The notes beneath the pieces are model-generated. The model was not told where the DNA came from. It did not search any database and was given only the letters and a program-made list of their open reading frames with translations. A stretch of 64,000 bases of DNA from the NCBI GenBank assembly GCA_030324005.1, contig JARDVH010000073.1, positions 52,569,169 through 52,633,168 on the forward strand, in the 5' to 3' direction. This stretch comes from Negaprion brevirostris. Taxonomy: Eukaryota. The translations under genes were made by a program, and so were the position numbers. Positions 14,921 through 34,737 of this stretch are shown here, piece by piece. How positions within the stretch are numbered: the first letter of the stretch is position 1; each line of letters starts with the position of its first letter.

Positions 14921-15055
14921 AGTCTGCATAGCCTGAAAGGGTGTGGTCTTCATGCTAACTGGAGAATTGCTTACTCGAGTCTGGAGTACCCGTCCTTGGG
15001 ATGCTGGGGTTATTGCTGTGCTCGAGGCAGTCTGGTTATTAGGCAGAGCAGTCAC
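14921..15055 (-). CDS. CAPRIN2: Caprin-2 coding exon 14
   Basis: caccag|VTALPNNQTASSTAITPASQGRVLQTRVSNSPVSMKTTPFQAMQT|gtgagt; 135 nt; phase 0/0; PFQAMQT is a caprin motif. Confidence 0.9.
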
Positions 15056-30536: not shown

Positions 30537-30614
30537 CTGCAGCATTGAGNNNNNNNNNNNNNNNNNNNNNNNNNNNNNNNNNNNNNNAGGGGTGTCAGAA
30601 TCCAACATGGAATC
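30537..30614 (-). CDS. CAPRIN2: Caprin-2 coding exon 10 (interrupted by an assembly gap)
   Basis: ttctag|DSMLDSDTP-[38 N]-LNAA(G)|gtatgg; needs phase 0/1, so the nominal gap length must be slightly wrong. Confidence 0.8.
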
Positions 30615-31496
30615 CTAGAATTGTAATAACAAAAAAGTTCAAATAAGCTGAGTACCACAACATTCAAATTGTTTAATGCAACAGAACGGAAAGCCAGCAA
30701 TTATTAATTCATTAGATAAGACTACAAAACTTAGCAGAAAGCACTGATAACTGGTGAAGTGACTTGAACAGGTTTTCATCCTGGTCACTTGGCCTTTAGC
30801 CAAGCAGTGTTCCATTCTGTTAATAACCAATAATATTCAGCACAACATTTCTGCACTGAGCTTTGGTAGGTGATGGAACACTAACCAGTTGCATTTCCCA
30901 TCAATCTTCCTAGCTGCATCCTGAATTCAAAGACATTCCAGCTAAGATCTAACCACCTTCTAATTTGAAGGAAAAAACATTCCAGATTAAGGGATTTATT
31001 GGCCACCAACAACAGCCCAAAGTGATGGGAGCCACCTTGAACCCCTGAAGGTCATGTGGAGTAGGTACATCTGTTAAATAAAATAAATGACTTTTTTAAA
31101 CCACTTTCCCAAACGGTCTTGTCAAATTCAAATATCTGTGTATACATCTGTTCCCCATACCATTTCAAATTTTATCATTTATCTTAAAAAAATTCTGTCA
31201 TCTTGTCAACATGTACTTGTTCTCCTGAAGTCAACTATTTTAAAATTCAAGTCATCTGCAAACATATACCAAATCTAGGGCCCCCAAAAGGCCTGGGGAG
31301 CAAGCTGCATACACTGCCATTCTACATGGTCTCTTTCCACTGTCCTTCAAATGCTAACAAGTCTATTTGTCATTTCACGTTCCTTTTGAAAAATACAAAT
31401 GCCAATTGAACCTTATGATCATGAGTAACTGGTGAAAGGAAAAAAAATATTAGAACACTGGGCCAGGAAGCTACAATGTGCAAAACAAATACATGC

Positions 31497-31628
31497 CTGA
31501 ATGAAATGACATGTCCCTTGTATTTGGGACATCAGGTCTTGAAGCTTCTGCCTCCTGAGTTCTGGATCCTTTGGCAGTGACGAGTTTGAGCAGAACTCTC
31601 CAGTAACCTGCTGCACCACCTTTGACAC
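31497..31628 (-). CDS. CAPRIN2: Caprin-2 coding exon 9 (start of HR2; GC donor)
   Basis: ttttag|VSKVVQQVTGEFCSNSSLPKDPELRRQKLQDLMSQIQGTCHFIQ|gcatgt; 132 nt; phase 0/0. Confidence 0.9.
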
Positions 31629-32151
31629 CTAAAAGGATTTAAACCAGTTCACAAGATGAGCTCCGCATTAAAATTCAAACCAAAAGAAAACAGCTGCTTA
31701 AAACAGGAACAACATCTTGACAGTGAGAAACATGGGCAAGTTCACCTTGCTACTAGAAACAGACTAATTGAAAAGCAAAATTCTTCTTTGGTTTTCTAGC
31801 CTCTTATCTGACTTGACCACAATATTTTGCAGTTAGTTGTGGATCCAGGTTATATTTCTTATTGGATGTGCACGATGGAAGTTAGCAACTGACACCAAGG
31901 AAAAGCTTGCAACCATCACCTAGCTGGGAATTTTTTTGTTCAGTTTTGGTAAATCTACAAAAACTTCCAATTGTTTCAGTATGAGAAAAAATGCCATAGC
32001 CATCATCTGGTTGACCAAATTGGGACTTCAGGGATGATCTAAAGCACTAGCATTTCTTCTAATCCTGATTAGCTAACATAGATTCCGTTTTTCTGCTAGG
32101 TGCCACAAGTCAGTACAACACAGCACTGTTCATTCAAAGGTAGTGCAAGAC

Positions 32152-32379
32152 TTTATTCAGGCATGTATTTGTTTTGCACATTGTAGCTTCCTGGCCCAGT
32201 GTTCTAATATTTTGTTTTTCCTTTCACCAGTTACTCTTGATCCAGTAAGAAATATAACCTGGATCCACAACTAACTGCAAAATATTCTGCTCAAGTCAGA
32301 TAACAAAGAGGCTAGAAAACCAAAGTAGTTTGCTTTTCAGTTGAAAAGTCTGTTTTTAGTAGTAAGGTGAACTTGCCCA
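32152..32379. repeat. Composite inverted duplicate of 31417-31505 and 31733-31867
   Basis: 32152-32242 is the reverse complement of 31417-31505 (2 mismatches, one 2-nt indel); 32240-32379 is a more diverged reverse complement of 31733-31867. Confidence 0.95.
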
Positions 32380-33102
32380 AGGTGAATCCAGCATGGAAGT
32401 AATCCTGTACATTGTCACTATGGTTCCTGGGTTCATGAAAATAATCCCCCTCCCCAGGGCCCCAAAACAAGGAGACAAAATCTTTTGCTGCAATACATGT
32501 GAAATTAGAAACCAATAGACATCAACAAGAGCCCAATCTGGAAATAAGACCCAGCCAAAAGGCCGTGGGAGACTGTTTCATCACTTCAGCCAAGCTCAAA
32601 CTTTAGATACCTGTCCTCCAAAACATAACTTACACCAGTCAGGTGAAAAGCCATTTAAATCATGTGTTGGGTCAGAGCATGCTAGCCAATTTAACACGGT
32701 GGCACATTTCCTTCCCTATCCACAGGGAGAAGGTAGGTATAAAGTAGAATTTGCTGAAGTTGAGTTTGTTAGAGAGCAAATGTGGGGTTTGAGATTTACT
32801 TGGTTGGCTAAAGGCTCATTCCAAAAATTAGGTCCATTAGAAGAGAAATTCCTTTTGTTATTTGTGTTCCAAAGCTTCACCCCACCATAGTAGCCAACAG
32901 CAAAATTAAAAATGTGTGTGCCATTTTCACAAACAAGTGCCATTCATCACCACTAGTAGGTGCTTCAAAGCAGATTAGGTTTTACCCACTTGCTTTGCTT
33001 CAGTTTCGTGTTTTGATATACGATCCCGTTTCTAAAGAGAAAAAGAGGACCATTAGTCATGAAATACAAGCATTTCCTGGCCAAAGCCTGCCATCTTCTC
33101 AC

Positions 33103-33474
33103 CTCTTTGGGCTCAGGCAGATTTCTCTTTGGTTCAGCTGATTCTTTTGGGACAGATCCCGATTCCCACCTTGGTGTCTCTGGCACGTCAGCATATGGTA
33201 CATCCCACTTTTTGGGCTGCTCCTCCAGTTTCTGATTGACGTACTCTGTACCCCATTTTTTGAGGGATTCCTTGTCCTGTTTTGCATCAACATACTCGTC
33301 GTCCCACTTTTTAGGAGACGTTTCCTCCTGCTGCTTTCTACTGATGTAAGCAGTGTCCCATGTTTTGGGAACATCCTCTTGCTTCCTGCCAACATACTCA
33401 GCTTCCCAGTTCCTTGGTTTCTCTGGCTGTTTTACAGCATAGTCATTTTTGTTCAGGTACTGCCTATTCAAAAA
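33103..33474 (-). CDS. CAPRIN2: Caprin-2 coding exon 8 (Trp-repeat region)
   Basis: tcttag|FLNRQYLNKNDY...PKRNLPEPKE|gtgaga; 372 nt; phase 0/0; FLNRxY start and PKxW repeats are CAPRIN2-like. Confidence 0.92.
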
Positions 33475-34737
33475 CTAAGAAATAAGTTTGATTACATTTA
33501 ATTCCACTCACCACTGAGCAAAGTATCAGAACAAACACAAACTCTCAATTTCTGCTCATTCTACTGAAGTGGAAAAGGCTATTTGCTCACTATTCCTCCA
33601 ATGATGAGCTGAACACAAGTCCAGCGCAAAAGTTACCACTGCTCAAGAGATGATTGTTGTGGCAACCTCTGATCAAAAGCAAAGATGATCAATCCAGCAG
33701 TACAAATTCACCCAACTGAAAAGCCTCAATGGGTCAGGTTGACAATGAGAAAGTTTTCACAACATGGTTACCAATTTCTTCATCGTCAGCTTCATATCAG
33801 TTTCTGATCAGCTATTTATAAGTGAATCTTGCAAAAGATAATTCTCTTAAAAAAATCTGGCTTTGAAATATTCATATAAAAGTGAAGTTGCCACAGTCCC
33901 ACTTGACCATAGACACTTCCCCTGCCCCACCCCCTTGAGGAAGAGAGCTGACATGATGATTAGCCAGAGGATCACCACACCTCAGGCAAGGGGCACAGTG
34001 GAGAAGGTAGTGCTTCATGAATAGCCTCATATGGAAATTGAGCCCATGCTGTTGGCATAGCTCTGCATCACAAACCAGCTATCCAGCCAAGATATTTTAG
34101 CATGAACAAAACACATTTGAGAATAAAAACAGCACACTTGAAACAAATTTTCTAGTCCTGCCCACTGTAGCAATCACAGGTGAGATAGAAGGTTTGGCAA
34201 ACCATTAAAGATCTGTTGACTTTGCACTGGAATTTCCAGTCTCTGGCTGGGTGTGATTGGAAAATCCCATCCAAGATGAATATTAGTTTATGGTTCAGTG
34301 TTAGTAATCTCAAACCCACACAACCTTTTGAAGCATCCAAACTTCAGTTTGGATGCCTCAAGATTGCATAATCTAGGCAGACTACTGCAGTAGTGAGGGA
34401 GTTTGGCATTATTGATGGGGGCTTTCTCATTTTTGTCCAATACTTAGCAAAATAGCAAAAAAAACCTGGTTACTCAACAGTTCTTTGTAGGAAATGCAGC
34501 AACACGATTCTACATTGAAAGTGATTGTAATTCAGAGCATGTGGAAAGCATGACCTAAACAAGTTTTGCTTCCCCAGTCTATTCTCAATTTGAAGTGCAT
34601 ATAGGAAAACAGAACACAAAAATGCAGCACAAAGTTATCACATAACTGGTACTCATTTCAAAATTTCCCCTCGACAGTGTAAAAGCCTTCAAAACCATAA
34701 TTTGAAAAGGATGGCTATGAGCAAAACTAAAACGTAC

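Follow-up and report, generated by a model that had tools for sequence, protein, structure and literature searches.

The window, that is, the whole 64,000-nt stretch of Negaprion brevirostris DNA that was analysed, carries a shark CAPRIN2 gene on its minus strand, with the Pfam families Caprin-1_dimer and Caprin-1_C. In protein searches the best named relative was caprin-2 of Mustelus asterias, which was 98% identical across a 132-nt exon. Shark proteins were mapped onto the window to obtain the exon positions, and the following four exons are relevant here:

33103 to 33474, minus strand: exon 8 (shark protein mapping)
32990 to 33031, minus strand: 42-nt cassette exon 9 (shark protein mapping and isoform counts)
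31497 to 31628, minus strand: coding exon 10, 132 nt, phase 0/0, with the GC donor CAG/GCATGT (shark protein mapping)
30537 to 30614, minus strand: exon 11, starting at 30614, partly in an N gap and with an approximate end

The size of the 132-nt exon, its phase of 0/0 and its GC donor agreed with the original prediction. However, its number did not: the 42-nt cassette exon at 32990-33031 had been overlooked, and the exon that had been labelled exon 9 is actually coding exon 10. With the additional exon, the intron that hosts most of the features described below is intron 9 instead of intron 8. The cassette exon 9 lies 71 nt past exon 8 and was missing in 30 of 104 shark and ray isoforms, according to a pattern count.

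Exon 10 encodes residues 444-487 of the protein P0029, residues 469-495 of which match the Caprin-1 peptide of PDB 6TA7 (E 0.0004). Exon 10 supplies the first 19 of these 27 residues that match the G3BP1-bound Caprin-1 peptide, and exon 11 encodes the second half of the G3BP-motif-like peptide. The Caprin-1 peptide binds G3BP1, and the exchange F372A abolishes binding (excerpts of PMC10170197 and PMC9636964). Judged from the sequence, skipping of exon 10 would drop the Phe that is equivalent to F372 of Caprin-1. In the excerpts of the G3BP and caprin texts that were searched, no statement about binding of Caprin-2 to G3BP was found. Elsewhere in the window, an exon at 14921-15055 (minus strand) contains an Arg at a position that is a Pro in two of the three shark proteins compared, and one Mustelus isoform leaves this exon at the Arg/Pro point via an alternative donor.

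Two pairs of inverted segments are found around exon 10. Their parts are listed below; the letters J and E denote two of the related sharks that were used for comparison.

31417 to 31502, minus strand: W, the likely original, comprising the last 6 nt of exon 10, the GC donor and the first 80 nt of intron 10; presumed template of Z; single copy in organism J
31629 to 31732, minus strand: A, the 3' end of intron 9 with the acceptor; missing from the copy
31733 to 31867, strand not given: Y, likely newly copied from X in inverted orientation; not found in organism J
31868 to 32154, strand not given: M, a 287-nt spacer, inverted relative to organism J
32155 to 32242, strand not given: Z, likely a new inverted copy of W; absent from organism J, and its first 15 nt or so unaligned in organism E
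32240 to 32242, plus strand: the ATC microhomology at the putative Z-X return switch
32240 to 32379, strand not given: X, the likely original, continuous with the reversed spacer in organism J

Both pairs had been proposed to be reverse complements, and alignment verified this. The segments 31417-31505 and 32152-32242 (W and Z) yielded 87 matches, 2 mismatches and one 2-nt gap, and the segments 31733-31867 and 32240-32379 (Y and X) yielded 125 matches, 7 mismatches and 3 gaps totalling 11 nt. The ATC that Z and X have in common is real and is located at 32240-32242. It was also correct that the exon body and the acceptor had not been copied, the 3' end of intron 9 with its acceptor being missing from the copy. 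In contrast, the claim that the last 9 nt of the exon had been copied had to be corrected to only 6 exonic nt, with the copy limit at 31502/32155 in the carrier relatives. Positions 32152-32154 belong to the spacer and not to Z: in organism J the spacer extends as far as 32154, and in the carriers the contigs with two copies stop at 32155/31502. No transposon had been recognized in the arms, and indeed they matched nothing beyond the local copies, neither in the own genome nor in the 264 kb around the gene, so they did not appear as copies of a dispersed repeat in either. The own-genome search returned only the four local matches, with uniqueness left unproven by a search that skips very common words.

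W contains two further sequence features. At 31429-31452 (minus strand), 68 nt past the GC donor, a branch-point-like CUAAU, a U/C tract and a CAG follow one another; from these letters, a cryptic acceptor that is also covered by Z is possible. It was used by no isoform, and the sequence after it has indels between species. The GC donor at 31492-31496 (minus strand) reads GCAUG, which we take to be the core of an RBFOX site, and a protein bound there could compete with U1.

To place the structure among sharks, 6 of 24 listed related-shark runs were compared, each of them a set of contigs; none of the listed runs is on record as RNA, six others were guessed to be RNA at shares of 0.07-0.14, and the best match, X1, was excluded as a possible source. 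The structure was present in five of the six runs, which represent the organisms B, C, D and E and the sample S5 and come from five studies. In B, D and E the Z-X joint was bridged by at least 31 nt to either side; in C and S5, the Z side of the bridge had 26-28 nt. In organism E, all four arms were contained in one contig of 8,231 nt. The 21 N gaps in the window might suggest that the arrangement is an assembly artefact of a gappy short-read genome. However, the presence of the structure in five other samples from five studies, with the Z-X joint bridged in three organisms, refutes this explanation, and the arms also differ by lineage-specific changes; an artefact can therefore be practically discounted.

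In organism J a simpler state was found. One contig of 4,169 nt (depth 27.6) covers neither Y nor Z, and it runs along the plus strand from 30620 to 31708, through 119 unaligned nt (Q), along the minus strand from 32154 to 31862, and again along the plus strand from 32249 to 33515. The order of segments is thus A-Q-reversed M-X in J versus A-Y-M-Z-X in the window. By parsimony, and with J as the one outgroup organism, the state in J is taken to be ancestral, because the reverse route would need the exact loss of two arms, a re-inversion and the gain of new sequence. X had been described as the reverse complement of Y; the comparison with J adds a direction, X being the original and Y the copy. 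This direction and the flip of the spacer at 31868-32154 relative to J had gone unnoticed.

Organism E represents a third state. Its Z begins at 32170, opposite intron position +10, and the entire 5' splice site is uncovered. A 66-nt stretch in E is possibly no more than the normal end of M (68 nt) that failed to align, but the start of Z at 32170 holds either way. In addition, E has lost 7 nt from W and 6 nt from X. The event falls after the split from J and before that from E, the flanks of which differ from the window by about 7-8%. Three other observations were made in the neighbouring sequence. In organism E, 85 nt at 31134-31218 are replaced by 94 other letters. The run X7 (organism D, depth 2) contains an opposite-strand joint at 30926-30972, which is possibly a second small inversion in intron 10, or else a contig artefact. 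A 40-nt remnant of a dispersed repeat is located at 31029-31071, where many unrelated contigs align.

Judged from these arrangements, a single replication template switch of the 3-1-4-2 type likely gave rise to 31733-32242 in an ancestor shared by several related sharks, and we are highly confident of this origin. From the comparison of sequences, Y and Z are likely new copies and the spacer was likely flipped, as in a 3-1-4-2 switch less about 325 nt of its mid-piece. The original prediction had named a template-switch scar as its fallback, and this turned out to be the best reading, as one 3-1-4-2 event gives both pairs, the crossing order and the Z-X joint. The polymerase would have left its template near 31732 (switch point 1) and moved to the opposite strand at the right end of X (point 2). 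It would then have copied backwards through M as far as the left end of W (point 3), about 840 nt in all, before returning to the left end of X (point 4) by means of the ATC microhomology. The predicted output is W-exon-A, Y, M, a reverse copy of Q, A and exon, Z, and X. Of this output, the window lacks about 325 nt, namely the reverse copies of Q, of the acceptor and of the exon body; this part would have been skipped at once or deleted later, and the antisense exon body may have been removed as harmful or unstable. The adjacency of Z and X and the crossing order X-Z-Y-W follow from the 3-1-4-2 geometry alone.

The four-point 3-1-4-2 switch has been described by Loytynoja and Goldman 2017 (PMC5453318, excerpts). 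As in that type, the insert is a reverse-complement copy of local sequence, two inverted repeats surround a spacer that is inverted in comparison with the unmutated state (one outgroup, J), the templates are local, a 3-nt microhomology is present at one switch point, and no prior repeat is needed. Identity at the switch points amounted to the ATC at Z-X, the one junction that could be read. A search for a nearby template of 31709-31732 gave no match of at least 8 nt. However, the copied piece is not continuous, and because the absence of about 325 nt between M and Z requires a further jump or a later deletion, the structure is a variant and not a plain member of the type. It also differs from the short events in the excerpts of PMC5453318 in its size, with about 510 nt present (about 840 nt for the whole piece) and a loss of about 325 nt from the mid-piece, and in being old, fixed across several shark species and placed with one arm over a splice donor.

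The broken copied piece, with about 325 nt missing that a single switch would yield, and the junctions A-Y and M-Z, which are unreadable in J, could also be explained by two separate events, i.e. an inversion with a duplication of X and then an unrelated templated insertion of W, or by the remnant of a repeat element. Against these explanations, the order Y-M-Z-X, all orientations and the Z-X joint are predicted by a single 3-1-4-2 event, none of the runs compared had Y without Z, and the arms had no match elsewhere in the own genome or in the 264 kb neighbourhood. Therefore, we consider them extremely improbable and retain the single switch. In the 264 kb around the gene (235 kb of which are called), 18 local inverted hits of at least 40 nt were listed, comprising the 2 pairs described here, 2 other unique pairs, 1 unique palindrome, and 13 hits that overlap dispersed repeats wholly or in part. 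Around the gene there is thus about one unique local inverted copy per 100 kb, so that such events are not rare, and at this frequency some would be expected to hit a donor by chance in a 2.7-Gb genome. One of the two other unique pairs (L010, G000:C73 near 52417392-52419216) has 60 nt, 96.7% identity and a distance of 1.7 kb, and the other one (L019, G000:C73 near 52505798-52506336) has 77 nt, 80.5% identity and a distance of 388 nt. No second crossing pair was found beside L010 or L019.

FoSTeS/MMBIR events involve several template switches, microhomology, and a mixture of inversion, duplication and deletion. The structure shares all of these characteristics, but in contrast to FoSTeS/MMBIR everything took place inside 1 kb of one intron. 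Complex rearrangements of this kind are also named in the excerpts of PMC5453318.

The transcript of the region was folded in silico. The duplex energies were -189.7 kcal/mol for X:Y and -145.7 kcal/mol for Z:W; stable predicted pairing is a feature of ATE1-type elements, but it follows from any inverted copy. Using ViennaRNA, which models nested folding and leaves pseudoknots outside, the ensemble of 31380-32450 contained 123 X:Y pairs and 0 Z:W pairs at -406 kcal/mol. When X or Y was blocked, 84 Z:W pairs formed and the donor was fully buried, at -357 kcal/mol and thus at a cost of about 49 kcal/mol. X:Y is complete 230 nt ahead of the synthesis of W, and the predicted folds agree with the earlier claim that X:Y forms first and holds Z in a loop. 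In RNA, X:Y would thus dominate, with Z perhaps still reaching the donor through a short helix. For Z:W to form in full, the strand tethered to the polymerase would have to be wound through the X:Y loop about eight times. The 12 donor-facing nucleotides of Z were 73% unpaired in the predicted nascent fold and opening them took 0.7 kcal/mol. The 12-bp helix that they could form with the donor had -17.7 kcal/mol and would prevail over pairing with the U1 motif (-6.1 kcal/mol). The donor of exon 10 had the weakest U1 pairing of the six that were scored. According to these models, a one-turn clamp of Z on the donor is physically possible. Back-splicing via Z:W had also been proposed; it is excluded in the window's form, because the donor lies inside the Z:W helix.

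An open donor-facing end of Z, a helix of -17.7 kcal/mol and a weakest-scoring donor would suit a second reading, namely, that the same template-switch birth was followed by a later co-option as a splicing modulator, with selection keeping Z and W matched. We regard this as possible but doubtful. In the tentative route, Z held in the loop would pair with the emerging exon end and the GC donor through a short pseudoknot helix, lower the binding of U1 and tune skipping of the exon that encodes most of the G3BP-motif-like peptide; alternatively, full Z:W pairing would occur once X:Y had been unwound or edited. Co-option predicts that pairing is under selection, and the substitutions in the arms bear on this prediction.

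All 12 assignable arm substitutions were one-sided; 9 break a pair, and 3 give a G-U pair, all of them within Z:W, two of which come from the run X7 with a depth of 2 and may be errors. Five further changes in X of organism E were left unscored, the matching part of its Y being unaligned. The compensatory changes that had been suggested as a check thus numbered 0 in 12 scored arm changes, which argues against co-option. At 3-8% divergence the power of this check is low, and the missing compensatory pairs are weak evidence, because such pairs are rare at this depth even under selection. Indels in one arm only were also observed, i.e. 4, 3 and 4 nt between X and Y as well as the two losses in E.

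Over four branches, 13-15 substitutions were found in the arms, less than half of the 33-36 expected from the flanking intron, with baselines for D and E that are rough, being piece totals with assumed exon counts. The Poisson P was 6e-5 to 3e-4, or 0.003-0.07 with an assumed regional rate variation. For Y and Z together, 2-4 substitutions were found versus about 13 expected (P 0.003-0.004, or 0.02-0.10 with rate variation). Arm by arm, W had 2 versus 8-9 expected, Z had 2-4 versus 8-9, Y had 0 versus 4.6 (A and B branches only), and X had 9-11 versus 12-13, which is the flanking rate. In the A-versus-B comparison, 1/215 in W and Y was contrasted with 37/1089 (Fisher P 0.008; random window pairs 0.018). 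Within the window, Z and W differ by 1 substitution and one indel, where 6.8 were expected. The rate test excluded the branches C and S5, which have no baseline; in these branches, 3-4 further one-arm changes occurred in Y and Z.

A rate deficit that is strongest in W and Z, together with retention of the structure in all five carriers compared, speaks for co-option, whereas the flanking rate of X and the additional one-arm changes on the C and S5 branches speak against it. Flanks of cassette exons are conserved, and the slowness of W has an ordinary explanation, namely its position beside an alternative exon whose GC donor is weak. GC donors are overrepresented in alternative introns and rely on enhancers (excerpts of PMC3167603). 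The rate deficit is thus a real lead, but not a demonstration, and on balance the arms are probably not under selection for pairing.

The close match of Z and W would also be accounted for by copy correction between the inverted repeats at the DNA level, through repeated template switching or gene conversion and with no role of the RNA. Template switching can create and maintain hairpin stems (PMC8794818, excerpts). However, unbiased correction should spread new mutations to both arms about as often as it erases them, but 0 concerted changes were found, either in the lineage of the window or in C, D and S5, and X and Y retain three old indels. We therefore regard copy correction as highly improbable.

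Annotated isoforms were used to determine whether exon 10 is skipped. It was missing in 6 of 104 annotated shark and ray caprin-2 isoforms, one from Chiloscyllium plagiosum (bamboo shark) and five from Pristis pectinata (sawfish). Because the lineages of both are more distant than J, from which we infer that they do not contain the duplicate, skipping is very likely older than the structure. Exon 10 has weak splice sites and was likely skipped now and then before the event. In the carrier B both changes in exon 10 are synonymous, which fits its continued use. Two protein searches returned no proteins from species known to carry the duplicate. The locus was not found in the accessible parts of the literature on caprin-2 in sharks and on CAPRIN2 exon skipping, the supplements of which may hold data on the human exon.

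In favour of co-option, exon 10 is a natural in-frame cassette, and crossing intronic helices that steer splicing have a precedent in ATE1 (PMC7797038, excerpts). Against co-option, skipping predates the structure, and organism E has neither the donor-facing end of Z nor 7 nt of W. Taken together, the skipping in distant lineages, the one-sided arm changes, the missing donor-facing end of Z in E and the preference for X:Y by about 49 kcal/mol argue that the structure is probably a tolerated scar and not a selected splicing switch.

A bolder reading, which we consider unlikely, is that one replication slip created a ready-made splicing or editing element that was kept by a shark clade, the Z clamp raising exon-10 skipping or allowing an ADAR edit. 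X:Y would present Z in an open loop, and Z would clamp the emerging GC donor of exon 10. This could either result in more skipping of the exon with the anchoring Phe of the G3BP-binding-like motif, or ADAR would edit the A at donor position -2 (window 31498), which would change Gln to Arg and weaken the donor. Editing-site complementary sequences are exemplified by the Q/R and R/G sites of GluA2. As in GluA2, an intronic strand could pair with the exon end and the donor, and a CAG codon is located at the donor; in contrast to GluA2, the pairing strand is found upstream, the helix ends only 4 bp away from the A, and editing is a candidate.

Two further systems can be compared with the scar. The ATE1 elements R1-R5 (excerpts of PMC7797038) likewise show long-range intronic complementarity near the splice sites of an alternative exon and a pseudoknot order, and conserved complementary regions can also be set beside the structure (PMC8052449). 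However, ATE1-type elements are conserved across vertebrates and were proven by compensatory mutagenesis (PMC7797038, excerpts), whereas the shark arms are limited to a clade, have one-sided changes and no common strand, and their pairing is predicted only. Primate inverted Alu pairs have been tied to exon skipping (excerpts of PMC13019944), and here, too, a lineage-specific pair spanning an exon could alter its inclusion. In contrast to the Alu pairs, the shark arms are unique sequence derived from the donor flank of the exon itself, and the helix would cover the donor.

As a scar, the structure is a clean, polarised case, nearly a kilobase in size, of the template-switch type that has been observed least often, and it is a clade marker in sharks. 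A further lesson is that crossing helices over a splice site can come from the geometry of a mutation alone. If splicing were tuned by it, this would be a rare case in which an RNA structure that controls splicing was born in one step, at an exon that contains most of a stress-granule binding motif. If this were true, the sharks with a full Z, with a truncated Z (organism E) and with no Z (organism J) would constitute a natural experiment on how such a regulatory RNA structure arises.
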